The notes beneath the pieces are model-generated. The model was not told where the DNA came from and made no database searches. It saw only the letters and a program-made list of their open reading frames with translations. A DNA stretch of 64,000 nucleotides from Candidatus Levyibacteriota bacterium (GTDB lineage Bacteria; Patescibacteriota; Microgenomatia; Levybacterales; UBA12049): assembly GCA_038254115.1 (NCBI GenBank), contig JBBSGK010000002.1, positions 5,589 through 69,588 on the forward strand. The letters run 5' to 3'. The position numbers and the translations under genes were made by a program. This document shows, one piece after another, positions 34,977 through 58,705 of this stretch. Positions within the stretch are counted from its first letter, which is position 1, and the number at the start of each line of letters is the position of its first letter.

Positions 34977-36374
34977 ATGAAGTCTCAACCGGTAGTCAAA
35001 ACATCTTACAAATACGGTTTTCACAAACCCGAAGCATCATTTTTCAAAACACCCATGGGTCTTAACCGTCAGGTTGTTGAGGCAATTTCGCATTTTAAAA
35101 ATGAGCCTGAATGGATGCTGCAATTCCGCCTGCAAGCTCTTATGATGTTTGAGCAGAAAATGCTTCCCACTTGGGGTGCGGATTTATCGGGAATTGATTT
35201 TGATGCTATGTACTATTACATCAGTCCAAGTGAGAAAAAATTTACAGATTGGGGCGATGTACCGGCTGATATTAAAGACACTTATGACAAAATTGGAATT
35301 CCACAAGCTGAGCAAAAATATCTGGCAGGAGTTGGTGCTCAATACGACTCGGAGGTTGTCTATCACAATTTGAAAAAGAAATGGGAAGATCTGGGTGTTA
35401 TATTTGTTGATACTGACACGGCGCTTACCAAATACCCTGATCTCTTCAGACAATATTTCGGAACAGTTATTCCTGTGTCCGATAATAAGCTTGCGGCACT
35501 CAACTCAGCTGTGTGGAGCGGGGGAAGCTTTATTTACATTCCAAAAGGTGTCCATGTAGACATTCCGCTTCAGGCGTATTTTAGAATTAATGCTGCTAAT
35601 ATGGGACAATTTGAACGGACACTTATCATTGCTGATGAGGGGAGTTACGTACATTACGTTGAGGGTTGCACTGCTCCTATTTACACAACAGATTCACTCC
35701 ACGCGGCAGTCGTAGAAATCATAGTCAAAAAGGGAGCTAGAGTCAGGTACACAACTATTCAGAATTGGAGCAATAATGTCTATAACCTTGTTACAAAGCG
35801 GATGCTGGTTGAGGAGGAGGGATTTGGTGAGTGGATAGATGGGAATCTCGGGGCAAAAGTTACTATGAAATATCCATCGGTTATTCTGAATGGCAAAGGT
35901 GCCAAGGGAGAAGTGTTGTCTCTTGCGTTTGCCGGAAAAGGGCAGCATCAGGACGCAGGTGGAAAAGCTATTCATCTGGCGCCTTACACAACTAGCACTA
36001 TTACTTCAAAATCTGTAAGCGTCGGGGGAGGCCGGTCCAGTTACCGGGGTATGGTAAAAATCATAAACGGCGCAAAAGGAAGCAAGTCTTTTGTCAGATG
36101 TGACGCGCTTCTTCTTGATGAATTATCACGGTCCGATACTTATCCGACAAATATCGTGAATGAGGAAGACGTAACACTTGGGCATGAGGCATCAGTCAGC
36201 AAAATAGGTGAGGAGCAGCTTTTTTATCTTATGTCCAGAGGCCTGTCTGAAGCCGCAGCAACCGGACTAATCGTTAACGGGTTTATTGAGCCGATTGTCA
36301 AAGAATTGCCACTTGAATACGCAGTAGAGCTGAACCGGTTAATAAATCTCTCAATGGAAGGCTCAGTCGGATAA
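34977..36374 (+). CDS. sufB: Fe-S cluster assembly scaffold SufB
   Basis: 465 aa. Conserved SufB C-terminal beta-helix region (...[18 protein letters not shown]...[27 protein letters not shown]). Confidence 0.85.
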
Positions 36375-42497: not shown

Positions 42498-43984
42498 ATT
42501 ATTTTATTCAGAGCGTCCAGATATGCTTTAACTGATGCGACGATGACATCCGTATCCGCGCCAAAACCATAATACATTATTTTTTTATACTCAACTTGGA
42601 CATGCACCTTGCCCAGATCATCACTTCCTCCGGTTACAGCTTGGACAAGATATTCCTCAAGCTTAACCTTTTTCTTTAAAATCTTATCGACTGCCGAAAA
42701 AGCTGCATCCACAGGTCCGTCTCCTGTTGCCTGAGCTTTCATCTCTTGACCATTTATTTTTATAGTAACATTTGCGCTCGGTGTAACTGAGGTTCCGCAG
42801 ACAACTTCCAAAAGATCCAATGTTGCGTTATCTCCATTTACCTGGTCTCCCATAAGAATCCGCAAGTCATCATCATTGATATCTTTTTTCTTATCGGCAA
42901 CTGTCAGGAAATTTTTATAAATCTCATCCAGTTTTTCAGGTGTCACTTTATAATTAAGTCTTTCCAGGTGATATTTAAGCGCAGCTCTGCCCGATCTGGC
43001 TGTCAGAGCTAGGGAGGATTCTTTGATTCCCACATCCTGAGGACTTATGATTTCATAAGTTAAACGGTGTTTGAGAACTCCGTTTTGATGGATTCCTGAA
43101 GAGTGCGCAAAAGCATTGCGCCCGACGATTGCTTTATTTGCCTGAACAGGCATTCGCATAAGGCGCGATACCATGCGCGATGCAGGATAGATTTTTTTGG
43201 TATCAATTTGAGTTATTGCGTTAAGATCTTTTCTGGTTGAGAGGATCATCACTGCTTCTTCAAGGGAAGTATTTCCCGCCCTCTCGCCAACTCCGTTAAT
43301 TGTTACCTCAATTTGCCTCGCGCCGTTTTGGACAGCAGCAATTGAATTGGCAGTCGCCATGCCCAAGTCATTATGACAGTGAACGGCAACGATTACATCT
43401 TCAATCCCATCGACATGATCAAACAAGTATTTTATTTTCTCCCCAAATTCACTAGGAAGACAATAGCCGGTTGTATCGGGAATATTTACAGTTGTAGCAC
43501 CTGCTTTTATAGCTTTCTCTATAAACTCTGCCAGAAATTCATTATCAGTCCGTCCCGCATCCATGGCCGAAAACTCAACGTCCTCGGCAAATTTCTTGGC
43601 GTATTTTACAGCTTCCACGGCTTGTTCTGTTATTTTCTCACGTGTTGAGCGGAACTGATGGATGATGTGAACATCCGAACTGCTGATAAAGGTATGAATG
43701 CGCTTGTGTTTGGCGAACTTCAACGATTCGTTTGCTGCGTCTATGTCTCCTTTTATTGCGCGGGACAAAGCAGTAATGATTGGCTTTTTAACAACTTTGC
43801 TAATTTCCTGGACTGATTTCAGATCCCCGGGGCTTGAAATAGGAAAGCCTGCCTCTATGATATCGACTCCAAGCGACTCAAGCATTTCTGCAACTTCAAT
43901 TTTTTCAACAGTATTTAACTGACAGCCGGGGGATTGCTCACCGTCTCTTAATGTTGTGTCAAAGATAAAAATTTTATTTTTCAT
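42494..43984 (-). CDS. leuA: 2-isopropylmalate synthase
   Basis: [14 protein letters not shown] (DRE-TIM metallolyase N-terminus), [18 protein letters not shown]-terminal LeuA regulatory domain. Confidence 0.9.
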
Positions 43985-44798
43985 ATTTTTTATTTTTTCC
44001 CAGGAATAATAAATAGATAACCCCTATATATCCCGCCATTATAGAAAGTCTGGCCAAACTAAATTCAGAATCTATTCCTGTAAAGCTACGTACTGCGTGA
44101 CCAATCAGGCTACGCTCGTCAGGCATAAATCTCATTTGAAATGAAACAATGTCAGACAAGCGAAAATTAAATTGATGAGCGAGCAGCTCTGTTGTTCCCA
44201 CCTGGACCATTGATGCCCCAAGCAGCATAATCATATATTCCGTAATGCGGAACACTTTCTGTATGGGAAATTTGGTGTATGTAAAAAATGCCGCTATCCC
44301 AACAAGCGATGCTGATCCAAGTCCAATAAAAAGCCCCATCATATTCTGAAAGAAAACAGCAAAGAGCGAAGTGCTCGCTGTGAATAGAGCAATTTCAAAT
44401 CCTTCTCTTATTACTAATAATATAATAGTTGCAAACAATGTAAAATCAAAAGCTCTGTTCTCCAATTTTGTTTTAGCTGTTTTAATTATAGCTTTTTTAT
44501 TCTCACTTATCCGCCTGTGAAGGGAAAAAATAACATAAGCTATGAAGAATCCGGAAAACAGCATAAGATAGTTTCCCAATAATTCTGCCCGCTTTTCAGT
44601 TAGTATAACTCGGGCCGCGTCCCCAAAGGTGTAAGTTGCAGTTGACAAAATAACAGAAATTAAAATTCCCAGTGCTGCAGCAATCCCTATCTCTGTTTCT
44701 TTTTTCAAACGAAGCTTTCGTGATACTCCCAGAAAAACACCTATGATTAGGAATATTTCCAAAAACTCTCTGAATGCAATTATCGCTATACTGAACAT
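43974..44798 (-). CDS. FTR1/EfeU-family putative iron permease, first gene after the leu attenuator
   Basis: Two RExxE motifs in hydrophobic spans ([13 protein letters not shown] and [13 protein letters not shown]). Seven predicted TMS. I prefer the ATG at 44798 (MFSIAII...) over the TTG at 44855, which lies in the terminator U-tract. Confidence 0.5.
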
Positions 44799-44853: not shown

Positions 44854-44877
44854 AAAAAAAACCCCGCTGAGCGGGGG
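44854..44877 (-). terminator. Intrinsic terminator of the leu attenuator (CCCCGC-UCA-GCGGGG + U8 on minus strand)
   Basis: Plus strand reads aaaaaaaaccccgctgagcggggg. The reverse strand gives a GC hairpin followed by eight U. Confidence 0.75.
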
Positions 44878-44910
44878 TGTATTTGTTACTAACCAAACAA
44901 ATCTCCCCGC

Positions 44911-44955
44911 CTAAACGGTAAGAAGTGTAAGGTTAAGAAGTTGTCTTTTATTCAT
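44911..44955 (-). CDS. leuL: Leu-rich leader peptide MNKRQLLNLTLLTV (leu operon attenuator)
   Basis: 14 codons, 5 Leu. The stop is immediately followed by GCGGGGAG, which can pair with the 5' arm of the terminator (antiterminator). TTGACG-N17-TATTAT promoter at 44965-44993 (minus). Confidence 0.6.
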   Translation of the reverse strand: MNKRQLLNLTLLTV

Positions 44956-45057
44956 GTTGATTTGATAATATCAGAAGAATCACAATCCGTCAATAGTTTT
45001 GTTACGCCTGATCCTGTTTGAGATATTGACTGGAAAGTATAGCGAGGTGGTATACTA

Positions 45058-46051: not shown

Positions 46052-46972
46052 TTAAATCTTCGTTGTCCAGGCTTTGTAATCTTTATCTTTCCCACGAACA
46101 ATACTGAAGAACTTTTCCTGAAGTTTTTTGGTGACAGATCCTATACCGGCTTTTCCAATTTGTCTATTATCTATTTTTGCAACCCACGCAACTTGACAAC
46201 CAGTTCCTGAAAGAAAAACTTCATCCGAAACATACAATTCGCTTCGTTCAATAGAACGCTCAATTGTATCAATGCCCATGTCTTTTGCAATTTGAATAAC
46301 AGACCTCCTCGTAATTCCCTCAAGGGCTCCTTCAGAAAGACCGGGTGTGATAAGTTTTCCGTCGCGGACGATAAATAGATTTTCTGCAGATCCTTCAGAT
46401 ACATGCCCTGAACTATTTAGTAAAATCGCTTCATCAAATCCACCATCAGTTGCTTCCTTTCTTGCGAGGGCTGAATTTACATATCCTCCTGAAAGCTTTG
46501 CACGGGTAGGAATTGCATTATCGCTGATTCTTTGCCAGGTCGAGACAATCATGGATAAGCCTTTATCAACCGGCATATATTCCTCAAGCGGAATCATGTA
46601 GAGAGCAAAATCAAGTTTTATATTTGCAAAATTAGGACCAAGCTCGGTATTACCGACATATGCAAACGGGCGAAGGTAAATATTTGTTTTAGGCTCATTC
46701 TTTGCAATAAGATCAAGTGTAATTTTTTTTAACTCCTCGTGCGAATAGGGAAGCGGACATCCTACAATTCTACCCGAAGACAAAAATCTCTTGTAATGAT
46801 CATCGATTCTAAAAAGAGAAACAAATCCTTCTTCTTTATTGTAGTAACCCCTGATGCCACCAAAAAAAGCTGTGCCGTACTGCAGAGCATTGGTCATAAT
46901 AGAGACCTTTGCATCCTCAATCTTTACGATTTCTCCTTGAAAAAATGCGTATGGAAATGCTTGAGTTTTCAT
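46052..46972 (-). CDS. ilvE: Branched-chain amino acid aminotransferase (fold type IV PLP)
   Basis: MKTQAFPYAFFQGEIVKIEDAKVSIMTNALQYGTAFFGGIRGY... Conserved E..GSAENLF and LSGTGCQV(T)...V motifs. Confidence 0.85.
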   Translation of the reverse strand: MKTQAFPYAFFQGEIVKIEDAKVSIMTNALQYGTAFFGGIRGYYNKEEGFVSLFRIDDHYKRFLSSGRIVGCPLPYSHEELKKITLDLIAKNEPKTNIYLRPFAYVGNTELGPNFANIKLDFALYMIPLEEYMPVDKGLSMIVSTWQRISDNAIPTRAKLSGGYVNSALARKEATDGGFDEAILLNSSGHVSEGSAENLFIVRDGKLITPGLSEGALEGITRRSVIQIAKDMGIDTIERSIERSELYVSDEVFLSGTGCQVAWVAKIDNRQIGKAGIGSVTKKLQEKFFSIVRGKDKDYKAWTTKI

Positions 46973-46991: not shown

Positions 46992-48824
46992 TTATACCTC
47001 TTGACCAGCGCCTTCTATTGCCGGTCTTGCTGTTGCCCTCATCCGGTTTAATAATCGGTTGTCAACAGGTTTTACAAGGGGATGAATACCTTTATTATCC
47101 GCTGCAACTTTCTGCCAAGCCTTTTTCCGCTGATCAAAAACTTTACTGTCTAATAACTCCTGACAATCAATAGTGCATTTGTTGATATCAACGATTATTG
47201 TGTCTCCATTCTCAATTAGCGCTATGGGCCCGCCAAGGTACGCTTCTGGCCCTACATGACCAATCACAAGTCCCACAGATCCTCCTGAAAAACGCCCATC
47301 TGTCATAAGGGCGATCGTTATTCTTTTTTCACGGCAAAGTGTTGTGATGCGGGACGTCGGATCAAGTAATTCAGGCATTCCGGGGGCTCCCCGTGGACCT
47401 AGATAGCGGATCACAACCATATCGCGGTCTTGAAAAATATCTGGTGAGTCCTCAAGAGCTTGAATCAATTCTTCTTCGCTATTAAATACGCGGGCAACGC
47501 CTTTGAATATTCCATTTTCCAAGCCACCCTCAACTCCTGCGACTTTGATAATTGCGCCGTTTTTCGGCGCAAGATTGCCCTTAAGTAAACGGAGACCCCC
47601 CGTTTTCTTGAAAGGTTTGGTTACCGAATAAATGACTTTGTGATCAGGCGAGGGAGGGGAAAGACGTTTGATTTGCTCGGCAAGTGTTTCGCCGGTACAA
47701 GTCACACAACTGCCATCAAGCAATCCTGCATCCAGAAGTTCTTTGACAATAACCTGCAAACCTCCGCTTTCATCAATATCAATCATTGAATACAATCCAA
47801 ATGGTCTGGCATTAACGAGGACCGACACATTTTTTGAAAGTTCGTTAAATTCTTCGGGCGTTATCACATCTTTCCATAGGTTGATTCCTCCGGCTCTTGC
47901 AATTTCAACACTGTGAAGCGCTACATTGGTCGATCCGCCCATTGCAATCGCGATGGTAAGGGCGTTTTTTAAAGAAGCGGGTGTCACGATGTCACGGGGT
48001 TTTATTTTTTTCTGTGTCATTTTTAAAAGACAATCAATTAGTTGATCCGGAAATTCCTCAACACGCCTCTTATCATCCGATGCGGGAGACACCATGTGCA
48101 GAGGTTCCATCCCAAGAACTGCAATAAACGATTGCATGGTGTTGTATGTGAACATCCCACCGCAGCTTCCTTGTCCGCAGCATGCGTTCAAAGCAACACG
48201 CTTTTTTTCCTCTTCATCATCGCTTCCAGCGGCTTGAAAAGCGCTGACGATATCAATCGGCTCATGAGTTTTTGGGTCGACTCCTGGTCTTATAGAACCA
48301 TCAGAAAGTATAATTGCCGGCTCATTGTGCTCCAAAATCGCTGCAAGTGTCCCGACTGGGGGCTTGTCACATGCAACAACAGAGATTAGTCCTTTGATGT
48401 CACTTCCGCTGAGGTGCAAAGTCATAGAATCGTGAGTAACTTCACGCCCGATTAGGGAGTAACGCATCCTGCCTGTTCCGTTAAGTTGCCCATCGGAAAC
48501 CCCGATTGTATATGCCTGAGGTATTAATCTAATTGGCAAATCATCCTTATTTATTCTTTGAGAAAGCGCTTTTTGGATTGCTGCAACTTTTTGAGTTACG
48601 CCGAGATAGCATTGGCTGTCACCCAAACTTCCTGTCACACCCCAAACATCTTTGTGAATTTTGCTTGGGTCTTGCTCCAAGAATCTGGCAGTACCTACTT
48701 TTTGGACATCGCGGCCGGGATTATCCGTTACGAAATTTGAATCATCAAAATTATCGTCACCACAATCACAATTCTCACATTTCTTATTAGTCGAATTTTT
48801 CATATTCTTAACTATACTCTGCAA
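46992..48824 (-). CDS. ilvD: Dihydroxy-acid dehydratase (IlvD/EDD family) with Cys-rich N-terminal extension
   Basis: CDKPPVG (CDK motif), NACCGQGSCGGMFTYNTM (Fe-S cysteines), TDGRFSGGS. Extra N-terminal KKCENCDCGDDNFDD. Confidence 0.85.
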   Translation of the reverse strand: MQSIVKNMKNSTNKKCENCDCGDDNFDDSNFVTDNPGRDVQKVGTARFLEQDPSKIHKDVWGVTGSLGDSQCYLGVTQKVAAIQKALSQRINKDDLPIRLIPQAYTIGVSDGQLNGTGRMRYSLIGREVTHDSMTLHLSGSDIKGLISVVACDKPPVGTLAAILEHNEPAIILSDGSIRPGVDPKTHEPIDIVSAFQAAGSDDEEEKKRVALNACCGQGSCGGMFTYNTMQSFIAVLGMEPLHMVSPASDDKRRVEEFPDQLIDCLLKMTQKKIKPRDIVTPASLKNALTIAIAMGGSTNVALHSVEIARAGGINLWKDVITPEEFNELSKNVSVLVNARPFGLYSMIDIDESGGLQVIVKELLDAGLLDGSCVTCTGETLAEQIKRLSPPSPDHKVIYSVTKPFKKTGGLRLLKGNLAPKNGAIIKVAGVEGGLENGIFKGVARVFNSEEELIQALEDSPDIFQDRDMVVIRYLGPRGAPGMPELLDPTSRITTLCREKRITIALMTDGRFSGGSVGLVIGHVGPEAYLGGPIALIENGDTIIVDINKCTIDCQELLDSKVFDQRKKAWQKVAADNKGIHPLVKPVDNRLLNRMRATARPAIEGAGQEV

Positions 48825-49257
48825 GTTCCAAAATTATCCCTTCCGGCCCTTCAAAGTAACACAATTTTTTATTTGATTCTTTATATTCCTGGATTCCGCT
48901 AAAAAATTTAATCCCTTTACTACCTAAATCTGCGACAACTTTTTCAATATCTTCAACCGCAAAAGCAACATGACGGTATCCAACTTGATTAAGAGAATTT
49001 ATCTTGGGATCTGTAGATCCAACAGGATTTAAAAATTGTAATAACTCTAAGTTAGTTTCTGTTCCTGGCAAATTTAACGCAGCAAATATTCCTTTTACGT
49101 CTTTCATCCTTGAAAGAGTATCGATCCACTCTCCAGTAAGGGTTCCTTCTCTTTGCACAATAAAACCAAAATTCAGAAAAAAATTCTTAGTCTCCTCTAA
49201 ATTACTTACCACAATATTAATATGGTCAATTTTTTTTATCATATTCATCCACTCCAC
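48808..49257 (-). CDS. VOC-family (glyoxalase/bleomycin-resistance/dioxygenase fold) protein
   Basis: KKIDHINIVVSNLEETKNFF...GYRHVAFAVEDIEKV... paired βαβββ modules with His/Glu ligands. Confidence 0.65.
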   Translation of the reverse strand: MEWMNMIKKIDHINIVVSNLEETKNFFLNFGFIVQREGTLTGEWIDTLSRMKDVKGIFAALNLPGTETNLELLQFLNPVGSTDPKINSLNQVGYRHVAFAVEDIEKVVADLGSKGIKFFSGIQEYKESNKKLCYFEGPEGIILELAEYS

Positions 49258-49288: not shown

Positions 49289-50341
49289 TTATTTCTGGTT
49301 CTCAGGCCTTAATTCCCTTACTTTTTTGCCTGTTCGCCACATTTCGCTGTTTTTTATAGTATCCAGCTCTACCTCAAGCTTCTTGCGGTAATCGGACTCA
49401 CTATTTTTCTTAATAGTCCGCGCTGCTTCTTTTCCTGATTTAACACTTTTATATAATTCTGAAAAAACAGGTTCTGTTGCCTTTCTGAACTTTTCTTTCC
49501 AATCGAGTGCACCGCGCTGCGCTGTTGTTGAACAATTTGCAAACATCCAGTCCATACCATTTTCTCCAATCAATGGAATAAGACTTTGGGTTGCTTCCTC
49601 AACTGTTTCGTTAAATGCCTCAGAGGGGGAGTGACCCATTTTGCGAAGCAAATTATACTGGGCTTCCATAAGTCCTGCAATTGCTCCCATCAATACACCA
49701 CGTTCACCTGTCAGATCGCTGTAAACCTCTTTTTCGAATGTTGTTTTAAATAGAAATCCTGATCCGATAGCAATTCCCAAAGCTTTCACTGTGTCCTGTG
49801 CGTGGCCGCTTGCGTCCTGAAAAACGGCATAACTTGAATTAATTCCCCGTCCCTCCAAAAATATTTTCCTGACCGTTTTTCCTGATCCTTTTGGAGCAAC
49901 AAGAACAACATCAACATCTTTTGGTGGTACAATTCCAGTTTGTTTTAAGAAAGTTATCCCAAAACCATGTGAGAAGTATAATGTTTTTCCTTTAGACAAA
50001 TGCTTCTTGACAGTTGGCCAGAGTTTGATCTGTGCTGCATCTGACAACAAATAGGAAATAATAGTGCCCTTTTCAAGGGCATCTTCAATTTCAAACAAAG
50101 TTTTGCCTGGCTTCCAGCCATCAACAATTGCTTTTTTCCAAGATGGGGAGTTTTTGCGCTGTCCGATAATTATATTTGCAATTCCATTGTCGCGCATATT
50201 TAACGATTGGGCCGGTGCTTGCACCCCGTAACCAATAACTGCAATTGTTTCGTTTATTAATACTTTTTTTGCTTTTTCAAGTGGAAATTCTTTCCGGGTT
50301 GTTACCTCTTCAAGAACTCCACCAAAATTTAATTTTGCCAT
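49289..50341 (-). CDS. ilvC: Ketol-acid reductoisomerase
   Basis: N-terminal Rossmann region IAVIGYGVQAPAQSLNMRDNG..., C-terminal knotted domain, typical length. Confidence 0.9.
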   Translation of the reverse strand: MAKLNFGGVLEEVTTRKEFPLEKAKKVLINETIAVIGYGVQAPAQSLNMRDNGIANIIIGQRKNSPSWKKAIVDGWKPGKTLFEIEDALEKGTIISYLLSDAAQIKLWPTVKKHLSKGKTLYFSHGFGITFLKQTGIVPPKDVDVVLVAPKGSGKTVRKIFLEGRGINSSYAVFQDASGHAQDTVKALGIAIGSGFLFKTTFEKEVYSDLTGERGVLMGAIAGLMEAQYNLLRKMGHSPSEAFNETVEEATQSLIPLIGENGMDWMFANCSTTAQRGALDWKEKFRKATEPVFSELYKSVKSGKEAARTIKKNSESDYRKKLEVELDTIKNSEMWRTGKKVRELRPENQK

Positions 50342-50380: not shown

Positions 50381-50656
50381 TTAAATTCTACCAACCGGCT
50401 CTTTGTTTTCGCCTTCAAAAGCATCAATTATCTCAATAATTTTATTTAGCTGCTTGATAGTTTTTTGTGTGGTCTTCTTATCTTGATTAACAACTATTTT
50501 AAATTTAGAAATTCCATGGGTCTTAGTCTCTGAGACATCTAGACTTTCAATGTTTACTTTTCTCCGCAAAAAAAGATCAGAAATGCGGTAAAGCACTCCG
50601 GGTTTGTTTTCAGCAAAAATAGTTATAATACTGTTTTTAGGATCCATATTATTCAA
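50381..50656 (-). CDS. ilvN: Acetolactate synthase small (regulatory, ACT-domain) subunit
   Basis: ACT fold IITIFAENKPGVLYRISDLFLRRKVNIESLDVSETKTHGISKFKIV. Directly downstream of ilvB with an overlap. Confidence 0.8.
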   Translation of the reverse strand: MNNMDPKNSIITIFAENKPGVLYRISDLFLRRKVNIESLDVSETKTHGISKFKIVVNQDKKTTQKTIKQLNKIIEIIDAFEGENKEPVGRI

Positions 50657-52337
50657 GCCTTACATCTGAAACGGACATTCCCGACGGAACCATCGGAAAT
50701 ACATTTTCTTCTTTCCGGACTGTCACCTCCAAAAGCATGGGTTTTTTTGATGCCAATAGCTTCTCAAGTCCGCTTCCAAGCTCCTCTCTTTTATCGACAC
50801 GTACTGCATCAATAAAAAATCCCTTGGCAACCGCAACAAAATCCGGATTTACCAGATCAACAAAAGAATATCGCTTGCCATGAAATAATTGCTGCCATTG
50901 CCTTACCATTCCAAGGAAGTTATTGTTAAGAACAATAATTTTGACGGGGATTTGCTCCTGAAACAGTGTTGCCAGTTCCTGGATATTCATTTGAAAACTC
51001 CCATCCCCTATAATCGCAACAACTTGCCTGTTGGGTGCAGCAACTTTAGCGCCAAGTGCTGCGGGCAAGGCAAATCCCATTGTTCCCAACCCTCCTGATG
51101 TTATAAAACTATCCGGCTTTGCCAACTTGGAATATCTAGCAGCAACCATCTGATGTTGTCCAACATCTGCAACGATAACTGCGTCACCTTTTGTCTTTTC
51201 AGAAAGCATATTTATGGTTTCGGCCATTGTAATCATTCCGGTTGTGGGGTGCATTTCTGCATCTTTGACTATTTTTTGCTCTTTTACATCACACTTCTTG
51301 AATTCTTCAATCCATGAAGAGTGCTTGGATTTTTTCACATGGACTGTAAGAGCGGCAAGCGCCTCTTTTGCATCTGCAATAATCGGAACAGCAACTTCAA
51401 CGTTTTTATTCAATTCTGCAGGGTCAATATCAATATGAATTATTTTAGCCTGCTTGGCATAATTGTCCAGATTGCCCGTAACACGGTCGTCAAACCGCAT
51501 GCCAACTGCAAGTATGACATCCGCTTGGTTGGTTAGGAGATTTGTTCCGTAATTTCCATGCATGCCAAGCATACCAACATATTGCGGATGGTTTGAAGGA
51601 AGCGCTGACAGCCCGTGAAGAGTTGATGCTGCCGGAATATCTGTTTTCTCCAGAAACTTTTTAAGTACCTCTTCAGCCTTTGCAATAAGCACTCCATGAC
51701 CAACTAGCATAAACGGACGCTTTGCTGAGTTAAGAAGTTCTGCTGCTTGTATAATCTGCTTTTCATCGGGTATTATTTGTGGCTTGTAACCCAAAATAGT
51801 AGGAGATTTTTGATAAGTGAAATCCAGTAACTCATTTTGAGCGTTTTTTGTGATTTCAATCATTACCGGTCCCGGCCTTCCGGTTCTGCTTATGTGAAAT
51901 GCTTTTGCAAAGACTTCAGGAATCTCAGAGGCAGTGGTAATCTGATAATTCCATTTTGTAATAGGGGTTGTAACTCCGATGATGTCTGCTTCCTGAAACG
52001 CATCAGTCCCCAGAAGTTTGGCGGGAACCTGTCCGCAAATGCAAACAATAGGCACCGAATCAAGCATTGCGTCAGTTATAGCTGTGATCAGATTGGTCGC
52101 GCCCGGACCCGATGTAACGAGCGCAACCCCGGGCTTACCGGTAATACGCGCATAACCCTCAGCAGCATGTCCTGCGCCTTGTTCATGACGCACAAGGATG
52201 TGACGGATTTTTTCTTTGTAATCATACAAAGCGTCATAAACAGGCATGATTGCCCCTCCGGGGTAACCGAATATTACATCTACTCCTTCTTTCAAAAGAG
52301 ATTCCATTACTGCTTGTGATCCAGTTATTTGTTTCAT
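50649..52337 (-). CDS. ilvB: Acetolactate synthase large subunit (ThDP-dependent)
   Basis: GYPGGAIMPVYDAL..., ThDP motif GDGSFQMNIQELATL...NNNFLGMVRQWQ. I prefer the ATG at 52337 (MKQITGSQ...). The ORF-track GTG at 52349 would sit directly against the attenuator U-tract. Confidence 0.9.
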   Translation of the reverse strand: MKQITGSQAVMESLLKEGVDVIFGYPGGAIMPVYDALYDYKEKIRHILVRHEQGAGHAAEGYARITGKPGVALVTSGPGATNLITAITDAMLDSVPIVCICGQVPAKLLGTDAFQEADIIGVTTPITKWNYQITTASEIPEVFAKAFHISRTGRPGPVMIEITKNAQNELLDFTYQKSPTILGYKPQIIPDEKQIIQAAELLNSAKRPFMLVGHGVLIAKAEEVLKKFLEKTDIPAASTLHGLSALPSNHPQYVGMLGMHGNYGTNLLTNQADVILAVGMRFDDRVTGNLDNYAKQAKIIHIDIDPAELNKNVEVAVPIIADAKEALAALTVHVKKSKHSSWIEEFKKCDVKEQKIVKDAEMHPTTGMITMAETINMLSEKTKGDAVIVADVGQHQMVAARYSKLAKPDSFITSGGLGTMGFALPAALGAKVAAPNRQVVAIIGDGSFQMNIQELATLFQEQIPVKIIVLNNNFLGMVRQWQQLFHGKRYSFVDLVNPDFVAVAKGFFIDAVRVDKREELGSGLEKLLASKKPMLLEVTVRKEENVFPMVPSGMSVSDVRLE

Positions 52338-52349
52338 AAATTTAATCAC

Positions 52350-52372
52350 AAAAAAACCGCCTATTTGGCGGG
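52350..52372 (-). terminator. Intrinsic terminator of the ilvB attenuator (CCCGCC-AAAUA-GGCGG + U7 on minus strand)
   Basis: Plus strand reads aaaaaaaccgcctatttggcggg. On the reverse strand the hairpin is followed by seven U, 12 nt before the ilvB ATG. Confidence 0.75.
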
Positions 52373-52401
52373 ATTTTTATTACTTCGTTCTCCTCCCGCC
52401 A

Positions 52402-52446
52402 TTAGTGGGCCACGAGAAGGACGACTGTAATTAATATTTTTTTCAT
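52402..52446 (-). CDS. ilvL: Ile/Leu/Val-rich leader peptide MKKILITVVLLVAH (ilvBNC attenuator)
   Basis: 14 codons, 8 branched-chain residues. The stop is followed at once by GGCGGGA, complementary to UCCCGCC of the terminator 5' arm. TTGACT-N17-TACAAT promoter at 52459-52487 (minus). Confidence 0.65.
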   Translation of the reverse strand: MKKILITVVLLVAH

Positions 52447-52523
52447 ATACCAAAAGTGATTGTATCAGATGAAATTTATAGAGTCAAGAAGTACGGCAGT
52501 TGCAAAAAGATTTAGGAATTTAG

Positions 52524-53099
52524 TTATTTATCTCTTCTTACAAAAAAACCTTCATCCCCGTAGTTATCAGGGACGTTGTCAATCGAATGATCAAACACGT
52601 GTCCCTTACCAAACTTTGATCTTACTTTTCCATCCCCCAGATATACCCCAAAATGTACTGCATGAGCTAATTCAAGATTGAACTCTTTAGCAACTAATTC
52701 AAGCATTGTGGCCGCAAGCTCTTTCGGTCTTAAAGAGGTATATACAACAACATCATTAACTAAAGGGTCTTCATCAACCGCCAAGGTTTGATAGTTGCAA
52801 TGAGCTAAATATGCCCGTGGAGCAAGAAAAAGATTACGCTTACTGGTTAGAGGTATAGGATCTCCTAATTTTTTATCAAAGCAAAACTCTGCACACCCAA
52901 CCGTGGGCAAAAAATAAGTTTTAGGTGTATGAAGTACTATGCCTGACTGTCCGGTAAGAAGATCATTAATGGCATTTCTTTCGGAAATCCTCTCCATGTA
53001 CATTACAAGAGTTTTAAGTTCTGCTCGAGCTTGATTATGTGGAAGTACAATAGTTTTAAACCCTCTACCTTTTTCATCCTCTTTAGCCATAAAACGCAT
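52524..53099 (-). CDS. Hypothetical protein, no confidently assigned domain
   Basis: 191-aa ORF with conserved-looking Cys/His positions (TVGCAEFCF...YLAHCNY...HAVHFGVY). Family unknown. Confidence 0.4.
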   Translation of the reverse strand: MRFMAKEDEKGRGFKTIVLPHNQARAELKTLVMYMERISERNAINDLLTGQSGIVLHTPKTYFLPTVGCAEFCFDKKLGDPIPLTSKRNLFLAPRAYLAHCNYQTLAVDEDPLVNDVVVYTSLRPKELAATMLELVAKEFNLELAHAVHFGVYLGDGKVRSKFGKGHVFDHSIDNVPDNYGDEGFFVRRDK

Positions 53100-54154: not shown

Positions 54155-54363
54155 GATTTGGCATTTGTCCTCTTGGTAATCTTATCAATTAGTAAAAGCA
54201 ATTTCTGCTAGAGTAGTTGGGGTTAATGTCGTACAAAACTTATTAGCACTTTGTCCTAATGGTTACAAAATGTTAGAATTTGTAGCGATGATAATCCTTA
54301 CTTATAAAAAGATTTAAATTTATGGACAAATAGCTAATTATATTGATTTAACAACCTAATTAG

Positions 54364-54446
54364 TGCGGACGAGAGGAGTTGAACCTCCACACCCTTTCGG
54401 GCACTACCACCTCAAGGTAGCGTGTATACCATTTCACCACGTCCGC
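54364..54446 (-). tRNA. tRNA-Leu (anticodon GAG), long variable arm
   Basis: Reverse complement GCGGACGTGGTGAAATGGTATACACGCTACCTTGAGGTGGTAGTGCCCGAAAGGGTGTGGAGGTTCAACTCCTCTCGTCCGCA. Anticodon loop TTGAGGT. Confidence 0.8.
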
Positions 54447-54751: not shown

Positions 54752-54769
54752 AGTCCTATTGTTTACTTG

Positions 54770-54852
54770 TGCCCAGGAGAGGAGTTGAACCTCCACGCCC
54801 TTGCGAGCACTGGCACCTGAAGCCAGCGTGTATACCATTTCACCACCTGGGC
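54770..54852 (-). tRNA. tRNA-Leu (anticodon CAG), long variable arm
   Basis: Reverse complement GCCCAGGTGGTGAAATGGTATACACGCTGGCTTCAGGTGCCAGTGCTCGCAAGGGCGTGGAGGTTCAACTCCTCTCCTGGGCA. Confidence 0.8.
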
Positions 54853-55711: not shown

Positions 55712-55794
55712 GCGGATGTGGTGAAATGGCAGACACGCAAGGTTTAGGACCTTGTGCCCGCAAGGGTGTGGAGGTTCGACTCCTCTCATCCGCA
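55712..55794 (+). tRNA. tRNA-Leu (anticodon TAG), long variable arm
   Basis: GCGGATGTGGTGAAATGGCAGACACGCAAGGTTTAGGACCTTGTGCCCGCAAGGGTGTGGAGGTTCGACTCCTCTCATCCGCA. Confidence 0.8.
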
Positions 55795-55810
55795 CTTAAA
55801 TAATTAAACT

Positions 55811-57330: not shown

Positions 57331-57457
57331 TTGACATACCTTAAGTGCATTGATATGATCTATTTAATGACTATAAAAAATATCAGTATTAAAATTATAA
57401 CTTCATAACGGAGAGGTCATTGCATAGCCTTTGAACCTCCCGGACGGGAGTTTTTTT
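57331..57457 (+). promoter_or_regulatory. ilvA control region: TTGACA-N17-TGATATGAT promoter, leaderless Ile-rich leader peptide MTIKNISIKIITS (57367-57408), CUCCC-GGAC-GGGAG hairpin + U7 whose 3' arm is the ilvA Shine-Dalgarno sequence
   Basis: Read directly. Leader has 5 Ile in 13 codons. The hairpin at 57437-57450 is followed by ttttttt and the ATG at 57458. Confidence 0.55.
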
Positions 57458-58705
57458 ATGGATAAAATCACAGTAAACACAATAGAGGAAGCTGCAAAAA
57501 CGCTTGACGGTGTTGTCAGCAATACGCCTCTGCAGTACAATCCTAGACTTTCAGCGGAGTTTAATTGCGATTTATACATCAAACGCGAAGATCTTCAAGA
57601 CGTACGGTCCTTTAAAATAAGAGGCGCATACAACAAGATTAATTCCCTAAAACAAACGGAGCGGAAACGGGGAATCGTAGCGGCCAGTACAGGCAATCAT
57701 GCGCAAGGCGTTGCTTACAGCTGCTTTCTTCTCAAAATAAAGGGAGTAATCTTCATGCCAACGGTAATATCCAATCAAAAAATTGATAAAGTAAAGCACT
57801 TCGGAGGTAAATATGTTGAGATCAAATTAATTGGCAAAACATTTGATGAGGCAGTGGACGCAGCGCGCAAATATTGTAAGGCTCACAATGCTGTTTTTAT
57901 TCACCCTTTTGATGATCCTTTGACAATATCCGGTCAAGGAACAGTGGGAAAAGAGATTTACGATAATTTGAAAGGTAAAGTTGATGTAGTAATCTCCCCG
58001 ATTGGCGGAGGAGGCCTTATCTCAGGTGTTGCCACTTATGTCAAAGGCAAGAAAAAAGAAGTAAAAGTTTTTGGAGTCGAGGCAAAGGGCGCTGCGAGCA
58101 TGGCAGAATCTTTAAAGCAGGACAAAATTGTTTCACTTGGAACATTTGATACTTTTGTCGATGGCGCTGCTGTCAATAAGGTGGGTCATTTGCCTTATCA
58201 AATTTGCTCTGAATTGGTGGAAAATGTACATATTGCCGAGGTTGGAAAAGTCTGCACTACAATGATTGACTTGTATCAAAATGAAGGGATAATCACGGAG
58301 CCGGCAGGCGCTTTGTCTCTGTCTGTTCTTGACGAACTAAGAGCCGAAATCAAAGGTAAAACGGTAGTATGCATACTTAGTGGCGGGAATAATGATATCT
58401 TGCGGTATCCTGAAATAATGGAAAAAAGTTTGGTGTACAAAGGGTTAAAGCACTATTTTCTGGTAGAATTCGCGCAGAAACCGGGACAATTGAAGCAATT
58501 TCTTAATAATGCGCTTGGGCCTCGGGATGACATCGTGCTTTTTGAATACATAAAAAGAAATTCACGGGAAAAAGGCCCCGCTCTAATTGGAGTAGAGCTA
58601 AGTAAAAAAGAAGATCTTGCCACACTTCTTGACAATATGGATAAATTGCAGATATTATATACAAAGATTACGAGCGATGACCCGCTATATGGTTTTATAT
58701 TATGA
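57458..58705 (+). CDS. ilvA: Threonine ammonia-lyase (biosynthetic threonine dehydratase) with C-terminal regulatory domain
   Basis: PLP-lysine motif SFKIRGAYNKI, GGGGLISG glycine loop, C-terminal ACT-like domain. Followed by ridA. Confidence 0.85.
   Translation: MDKITVNTIEEAAKTLDGVVSNTPLQYNPRLSAEFNCDLYIKREDLQDVRSFKIRGAYNKINSLKQTERKRGIVAASTGNHAQGVAYSCFLLKIKGVIFMPTVISNQKIDKVKHFGGKYVEIKLIGKTFDEAVDAARKYCKAHNAVFIHPFDDPLTISGQGTVGKEIYDNLKGKVDVVISPIGGGGLISGVATYVKGKKKEVKVFGVEAKGAASMAESLKQDKIVSLGTFDTFVDGAAVNKVGHLPYQICSELVENVHIAEVGKVCTTMIDLYQNEGIITEPAGALSLSVLDELRAEIKGKTVVCILSGGNNDILRYPEIMEKSLVYKGLKHYFLVEFAQKPGQLKQFLNNALGPRDDIVLFEYIKRNSREKGPALIGVELSKKEDLATLLDNMDKLQILYTKITSDDPLYGFIL

Follow-up and report, generated by a model that had tools for sequence, protein, structure and literature searches.

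How are the genes for the synthesis of branched-chain amino acids (BCAA) controlled in a bacterium of the candidate phyla radiation (CPR; Patescibacteria)? This question is raised by a DNA stretch of 64,000 nucleotides (nt) from Candidatus Levyibacteriota (contig JBBSGK010000002.1), which is called the window throughout. It carries the operon ilvB-ilvN-ilvC-VOC-ilvD-ilvE on its minus strand, and directly upstream of ilvB lies a short element with a promoter, a small open reading frame (ORF) and a terminator. A sequence-only reading of the window had proposed that this element is an attenuator governed by a leader peptide rich in isoleucine, leucine and valine (ILV). The proposal was supported, as the anatomy of the element, its conservation and its structure switching in silico all agree with it. 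It is concluded that the ilv element is very probably a ribosome-mediated, leader-peptide-dependent transcription attenuator of the operon from ilvB to ilvE (probability about 0.85). In all likelihood the attenuator is real and represents a classical, already known type of mechanism in an unusual host.

The anatomy of the element was read on the minus strand. The promoter that the sequence-only reading had claimed, TTGACT-N17-TACAAT, is present where it had been placed: a consensus scan recovered it with 10 of 12 matching positions, a −35 hexamer TTGACT (52482–52487), a spacer of 17 nt and an extended −10 motif TGaTACAAT (52459–52467, with the TG at 52467–52466 and the TACAAT at 52464–52459). 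Only 12 nt separate the −10 hexamer from the ATG of the leader ORF (52446–52444), and judged from the promoter position the 5′-untranslated region (5′-UTR) is predicted to be about 4–6 nt long. The claimed 14-residue leader was likewise found. The ilvL-like ORF encodes MKKILITVVLLVAH and extends with its TAA stop codon (52404–52402) from 52446 to 52402, and its codons are ATG AAA AAA ATA TTA ATT ACA GTC GTC CTT CTC GTG GCC CAC TAA. With two Ile, three Leu and three Val, 8 of the 14 residues are I/L/V, a fraction (0.57) that is reached by only 2 of the 235 ATG-initiated ORFs of 12–16 aa in the window, MKKILITVVLLVAH included (top 1%). No Shine-Dalgarno (SD) sequence was found upstream of MKKILITVVLLVAH.

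Four segments of the leader RNA are able to pair with one another. Segment 1 (52408–52431), the 5′ arm of a putative anti-antiterminator in minimum free energy (MFE) folds, covers codons I6 to A13 and has the core GUCGUCCUUCUC and GCC. Segment 2 (52379–52400) begins with GGCGGGA (52400–52394), which is separated from the stop codon by a single T and can pair either with segment 1 (GCC) or with segment 3; GGAGGAGAACGAAGUAA of segment 2 also pairs with segment 1. Segment 3, UCCCGCC (52367–52373), is common to the antiterminator, which it forms with segment 2, and to the terminator, which it forms with segment 4 (52350–52361; GGCGG at 52361–52357 and the U7 tail at 52356–52350). The claimed complementarity of GGCGGGA and UCCCGCC is exact, and with the flanking bases it extends to 8 bp (UGGCGGGA:UCCCGCCA) with a free energy of −16.2 kcal/mol. 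Only 9 of 2000 dinucleotide shuffles reached this strength of pairing between the spacer after the stop codon and the terminator arm. In five relatives, the antiterminator pairing likewise exceeded that of most shuffles, being reached by 26–248 of 2000. The folding z score of the 116-nt region was −3.45. The intrinsic terminator consists of CCGCC (52371–52367), the loop AAAUA, GGCGG and U7 (−9.2 to −10.7 kcal/mol). It ends 12 nt before the ATG of ilvB at 52337, as had been claimed, and was listed independently by the consensus scan. The terminator thus follows the leader ORF and precedes the first structural gene, as in an attenuator. Since the promoter is located upstream and only 12 nt remain to the ATG of ilvB, the operon must be transcribed through this terminator. 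For the same reasons, namely the intervening conserved promoter and the remaining 12 nt before ilvB, the possibility that the hairpin simply terminates the upstream 191-aa gene was rejected.

In the proposed mechanism, transcription would start a few nucleotides upstream of the 14-codon ORF, which would be translated while the RNA polymerase advances. With ample charged Ile-, Leu- and Val-tRNA, the ribosome would reach the TAA and cover GGCGGGA. This would leave UCCCGCC free for GGCGG, the terminator with its U7 tail would form, and transcription would stop 12 nt before ilvB. If any one of the BCAA became scarce, the ribosome would be expected to stall within codons 5 to 12 or thereabouts (L I T V V L L V), to melt segment 1 and to expose GGCGGGA, which would take UCCCGCC once this had been transcribed. 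The resulting 8-bp helix, being stronger than the terminator, would block it and allow read-through into the operon. In the absence of translation, segment 1 would pair with segment 2, and this anti-antiterminator would again lead to termination.

The strongest argument for attenuation came from two sister elements in the same window, which had not been part of the sequence-only reading. One of them is a putative leucine leader attenuator (44854–44993, minus strand). A promoter TTGACG-N17-TATTAT is followed after 9 nt by the ATG (44955) of the ORF MNKRQLLNLTLLTV, which contains five Leu and no Ile. Its TAG stop codon (44913–44911) abuts GCGGGG, a terminator CCCCCGC-uca-GCGGGG with a U8 tail follows, and downstream lie the genes FTR1/EfeU-like-leuA-leuC...leuB. 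The switching predicted for this leader is the same as for the ilv leader, and the leader is kept as ...LNL(A/T)LLTV in three relatives (L163, L165, L171). The other element is a putative isoleucine leader attenuator on the plus strand (57331–57457). Here, the promoter TTGACA-N17-TATGAT is followed after 7 nt by the ATG (57367) of MTIKNISIKIITS, which contains five Ile and neither Leu nor Val. After the stop codon (57406–57408) comes cGGAGAGG with complementarity to CCUCCCG, and the terminator CUCCC-ggac-GGGAG with its U7 tail directly abuts the ATG of ilvA (57458–58705, plus strand; NF006390, 595.8 bits). For this element no hairpin between segments 1 and 2 (1:2 hairpin) was predicted, and by default it folds into the antiterminator. 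In L170 a corresponding Ile leader, MRNVKQISIIAISNRM, is located inside the operon, between ilvC and ilvA.

All three leaders have the same architecture, and each of the three compositions is reached by 1% or less of the short ORFs of similar length. The composition tracks the operon that follows: mixed ILV precedes the genes of the shared pathway, Leu only precedes leuA, and Ile only precedes ilvA. Amino acid-specific sensing by the ribosome predicts this pattern, for which another explanation is hard to find. The contrast with the Leu-only and Ile-only leaders also supports the multivalent control by Ile, Leu and Val that the sequence-only reading had assumed for the ilv operon.

The conservation of the ilv element was analyzed in 12 relatives from genome and metagenome scans and contig look-ups, in which ilvB is the first gene and IlvB is 65–78% identical to that of the window. 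The sequence-only reading had named a lack of BCAA enrichment in the leader ORFs of relatives as a finding that would speak against it. The opposite was found: in 12 of 12 relatives an ILV-rich ORF of 13–15 codons lies directly upstream of ilvB, together with a promoter and a terminator. The encoded peptides are MKSLNLVVLIVAR, MNRLFSQIIVVLITH, MNNKAAQLIVVLITH, MNRRFAQLIIVLITH, MKKFAILIIVLLDLA, MKNNVLNIVILITP, MKPNNLGLVILIAR, MKTRMFLGVVILITR, MNNKFAQLIVILITH, MKNKVAQLIVLLITR, MILKSTLKLLVVITP and MRNSAALLVIVALAS. All 12 promoters are sigma-70-like (8–11 of 12 consensus positions), and the spacer between −35 and −10 is 16–17 nt long in all 13 ilv leaders. In a set of 17 elements (13 ilv, 4 leu), the −10 motif ends 6–19 nt before the start codon, and the G-rich segment starts between −2 and +3 nt from the stop codon in every case. 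In the relatives this segment pairs with the terminator 5′ arm of its own element over 5–8 bp (−9 to −16 kcal/mol). Alignments with MAFFT set the helices of four divergent elements (L001, L087, L170 and the leu element of the window) out of register, and helices were tallied for each element with RNAduplex.

The codon pattern was informative about translation. Across a six-codon core of the 13 ilv leaders, 71 of 78 codons carry T at the second position (entropy 0.39 bits), as opposed to a first position at which A, G and C all occur (1.26 bits). What is conserved is thus the I/L/V class, in frame, which argues for translation of the leader. In a looser scan, a leader ORF with an ILV run and a terminator was found in 35 of 153 loci in the sense direction, compared to 6 of 153 in the reverse-strand control. 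Most of these candidates are located upstream of ilvD in Bacteroidota. Seven loci of a Chitinophagaceae type (L042, L060, L066, L077, L129, L158 and L159) have leaders of 30–35 aa before ilvD, e.g., MFSNSTNIVNIISTIIIVVVIIIPVPNGGGVLL. We take the ...IIIP...GGG ending of these leaders to resemble that of the E. coli ilvGMEDA leader.

The effect of the ribosome position on the structure was then modeled by keeping all bases up to a point 9–14 nt beyond the A-site codon unpaired. The free leader RNA of the ilv element folded into the 1:2 hairpin and the terminator. When the A site was placed on codons 6–11 (I T V V L L), the 8-bp antiterminator formed in the equilibrium model, and from codon 12 through the stop codon the terminator formed; this result was stable across all footprint offsets from 9 to 14 nt. 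The comparison of alternative folds that had been suggested together with the attenuator proposal thus placed the antiterminating positions in silico on ILV codons and the terminator at the stop codon. The antiterminator (−16.2 kcal/mol) and the terminator (−9.2 kcal/mol) are mutually exclusive helices. The MFE fold contained an additional hairpin, absent from the sequence-only reading, in which the VVLL codons (GUCGUCCUUCUC...GCC) pair with GGC...GGGAGGAGAACGA. The ilv element is therefore predicted to form three hairpins, an anti-antiterminator, an antiterminator and a terminator. In comparison to synonymous recodings of the leader of the window, the signal for the 1:2 hairpin was weak, with a value of 137/2000.

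Because the equilibrium model failed in four relatives, and because the decision is really a kinetic one, the folding was repeated with transcripts truncated before segment 4. In this kinetic model, segment 2 captured segment 3 upon stalls in the regulatory run in 17 of 17 elements, and in all 17 segment 3 was free when the ribosome was on the last one to three sense codons or on the stop codon. For the ilv element of the window, codons 5–13 gave the antiterminator and the stop codon gave the terminator. Regulatory codons and antiterminating positions were strongly associated, with an odds ratio of 11–23, a value derived from related and hence not independent sequences.

Several results weigh against attenuation. 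In L165, L167, L168 and L169 the full-length equilibrium model yielded the terminator at every ribosome position, so that the argument needs co-transcriptional folding. The anti-antiterminator of the free RNA was predicted in only 9 of the 17 elements, and in L082 and L083 the 1:2 hairpin was no better than in synonymous recodings. The terminator of the window is short, with five G-C pairs and about −9 to −11 kcal/mol. Covariation is weak, as pairing of a segment with its own partner is only marginally more stable than cross pairing (−13.45 versus −12.75 kcal/mol), which is due to the conserved GC core of segments 2, 3 and 4. The start of transcription, translation of the ORF, its coupling to transcription, the short transcript and the physiological response are inferred. 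Lastly, regulation in S. coelicolor is reported to have been unaffected when the candidate regulatory codons of a similar ilvB leader were mutated (PMC1262725), and thus a leader-like anatomy does not guarantee classical attenuation.

Such points would fit a leaky terminator, either constitutive or acting on the RNA level only, which would set a fixed expression level or respond to temperature or a small RNA, the short ORF being untranslated or irrelevant. The inferred status of transcription start and translation, the scarce covariation, the S. coelicolor mutants and the ilvA element, with its missing 1:2 hairpin and its antiterminator as default fold, can all be quoted for it. Nevertheless, this explanation is unlikely: it leaves the in-frame conservation of NUN codons with a variable first position unexplained, as well as the conserved ORF length and the stop codon abutting segment 2 in 17 of 17 elements, and above all it does not account for the switch to Leu-only and Ile-only leaders before leuA and ilvA. 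It is quite improbable that the hairpins are switched not by a ribosome but in trans, by uncharged tRNA in the manner of a T-box or by a protein that binds RNA or BCAA. Alternative terminator and antiterminator structures would fit any effector, and ilv-leu operons are under T-box control in many Firmicutes. However, no T-box or other Rfam match was found in the region even at E<=10, the whole element of about 100 nt is too short for a T-box, and apart from the ORF and the three G/C segments nothing conserved stands out that could serve as an unpaired specifier or a binding motif. The idea that the ORF encodes a functional hydrophobic micro-protein, next to which the terminator is incidental, has hardly any probability. 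The peptide is indeed hydrophobic and conserved in length, but only the I/L/V class is conserved and not the individual residues, the Ile leader MTIKNISIKIITS does not resemble a hydrophobic helix, and neither the geometry of stop codon and segment 2 nor the operon-matched composition would be explained.

Leader-peptide attenuation of the ilv operon was also compared with known families and systems. In an Rfam scan of the whole window only tRNAs reached the gathering (GA) level. The ilv element remained below it with Phe_leader (RF01859, 21.6 bits, GA 55), Leu_leader (RF00512, 14.3 bits, GA 50) and Trp_leader (RF00513, 15.5 bits, GA 41), and so did the leu element with Phe_leader (17.0 bits, GA 55). 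A T-box riboswitch was rejected, as there was no match at E<=10 in 51800–53000 and none at the gathering level in the window, and the element has about 100 nt in comparison to about 200–300 nt. Enterobacterial ilvBN, ilvGMEDA and leu show the same division, with multivalent ILV control of shared-pathway genes and Leu-only control of leu. Enterobacterial leaders share with the element of the window the runs of regulatory codons and the terminator before the first gene, and their hairpins 1:2, 2:3 and 3:4, which exclude one another, correspond to those predicted for the window. However, they are 28–32 aa long, have an SD-led 5′-UTR and a longer RNA, whereas the leaders of the window type have 13–16 aa, no SD sequence and a start codon 6–19 nt after the −10 motif.

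The nearest studied analogue is ilvBNC of C. glutamicum, which, like the element of the window, has a short mixed-ILV leader before ilvB-ilvN-ilvC, and which follows the three-hairpin logic predicted for the window. The leader peptide IlvL (MTIIRLVVVTARRLP, 15 aa) contains mixed Ile, Val and Leu codons, transcription starts 1 nt from its start codon (leaderless), three hairpins are formed, and Val-to-Ala as well as start-codon mutations abolish regulation (PMC11857589). In contrast, C. glutamicum is a high-GC actinobacterium, its leader region has 292 nt instead of about 110 nt, and no sequence similarity was detectable by inspection. In the window, moreover, the stop codon abuts the 5′ arm of the antiterminator, and 12 nt lie between the end of the terminator and ilvB. 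In Mycobacterium and Streptomyces, ilvB leaders with short ORFs, I/V/L runs and terminators have been described (PMC1262725). These actinobacterial leaders have no sequence relation to the family of the window, and in S. coelicolor the mechanism is disputed.

Elements before ilvD or ilvB in Bacteroidota, e.g., in Dyadobacter (MKSTIIVPVLLIVTQ), resemble that of the window in having a short ILV leader with a stop codon that is followed by a complement of the terminator arm. In the Dyadobacter element, stalls on codons 2–13 (9 of 12 I/L/V) are predicted to give the antiterminator, and Dyadobacter IlvB is the closest named homologue (65–66%). Unlike in the window, the stem sequences are others, the operon begins with ilvD, many leaders have 20–35 aa, and the promoter may be of another type. 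In the literature consulted, no description of ILV leader and terminator elements in Bacteroidota was found; Vitreschak et al. reportedly mentioned candidate attenuators in Bacteroidetes/Chlorobi in 2004. A survey of 2010 gave Proteobacteria and Actinobacteria as the only groups with known leader-peptide systems at that time, apart from a hisS case in Firmicutes (PMC2965389). In the literature consulted, no publication was found that links CPR or Patescibacteria with leader peptides or attenuation.

None of the three leaders of the window has an SD sequence. SD cores at −20 to −4 were found in only 4 of 41 ORFs of at least 200 aa in the window, compared to 12% of random windows, which is background level. 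Initiation thus appears to be SD-independent in this genome, and leaders without an SD sequence are normal here, as SD cores are at background level genome-wide. The promoters of the window are of the canonical sigma-70 type, frequently with a TG extension, and the short distance from −10 to the start codon points to leaderless mRNAs or mRNAs with very short leaders.

The assignment of the host rests on several proteins. Identical IlvB, IlvC, LeuA, ThrS and SufB are encoded together on one NCBI contig and also occur in run SRR24807095. The named relatives of ThrS are all Patescibacteria, namely three Candidatus Daviesbacteria (65–70% identity), a "Patescibacteria group" and a "Saccharimonadales" entry. 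For IlvB, the named relatives include "Microgenomates", "Patescibacteria group" and "Saccharimonadales" entries as well as "Acidoferrales" and "Sulfotelmatobacter". The host is thus probably an uncultured CPR bacterium of the Microgenomates type. Apart from these entries, the nearest IlvB sequences are those of Bacteroidota (60–66%), which hints at horizontal transfer. The window also contains a suf cluster (SufB, 34977–36374). CPR bacteria are generally considered to be poor in amino acid biosynthesis, and a complete BCAA pathway is unusual for them; complete ilv and leu operons together with a suf cluster would make a CPR-type organism metabolically unusual.

The genes downstream of the ilv leader, all on the minus strand, were identified by profile matches, which confirmed the claimed order ilvB-ilvN-ilvC. 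The large subunit of acetolactate synthase is encoded by ilvB (50649–52337, 562 aa; TIGR00118, 725.7 bits, cutoff 538) and the short regulatory subunit by ilvN (50381–50647), which has 88 aa as called, or 91 aa from an upstream TTG, and consists of an ACT domain only, in comparison to 161–169 aa (ACT + ALS_ss_C) in most relatives. A fusion of the small subunit with an aminotransferase domain (562–566 aa) is encoded in L163 (11688–13388) and L170 (11689–13377). Ketol-acid reductoisomerase (ilvC, 49289–50341; TIGR00465, 315.7 bits) is followed by a VOC/glyoxalase-family gene (48808–49257), dihydroxy-acid dehydratase (ilvD, 46992–48824) and, as last gene of the operon, branched-chain aminotransferase (ilvE, 46052–46972; NF005146, 370.5 bits). 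A VOC/glyoxalase gene just upstream of ilvD is also present in L168 (14628–15074), L169 (14776–15222) and L171 (13344–13808). Three tRNA-Leu genes with the anticodons GAG, CAG and TAG (54363–54446 and 54769–54852 on the minus strand, 55712–55795 on the plus strand) form a cluster 2–3 kb upstream of the ilv leader, in which Leu is encoded by UUA, CUU and CUC; this proximity may be a coincidence.

The first gene after the Leu leader encodes an FTR1/EfeU-family iron-permease-like protein (43974–44798, minus strand) and overlaps the start of leuA. This arrangement is kept in L163 (19056–19883), L165 (18493–19323) and L171 (17003–17848), and it may connect the provision of iron with LeuCD and IlvD, which are Fe-S enzymes. 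In four relatives the gap between ilvC and ilvA contains long GC-rich palindromic repeats (L163 14441–14544, L167 13268–13348, L168 13307–13400, L169 13429–13548), examples being ACGTCATTGCGAG...CTCGCAATGACGT and TGTCATTCTGAGCG...CAGGATGACA. These are REP/MITE-like in appearance and are not Ile leaders.

Taken together, the odds are about even for the broader view that a Microgenomates lineage near Daviesbacteria with a complete BCAA pathway uses three minimal, SD-less and near-leaderless attenuators (ILV, Leu, Ile), an RNA family outside of Rfam whose design is shared with Cytophagales. The mechanism itself is textbook knowledge, and concepts would remain unchanged. If true, however, this would be the first evidence for ribosome-mediated attenuation in CPR, and it would imply a tight coupling of transcription and translation as well as efficient initiation at leaderless or short-leader mRNAs in these bacteria. 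The compact family lies outside of Rfam, and annotation pipelines will miss such leaders. The three sister elements in one genome represent a clean natural experiment on amino acid specificity, and regulated BCAA synthesis together with ribosome-coupled attenuation would inform views of the physiology and gene expression of CPR bacteria.

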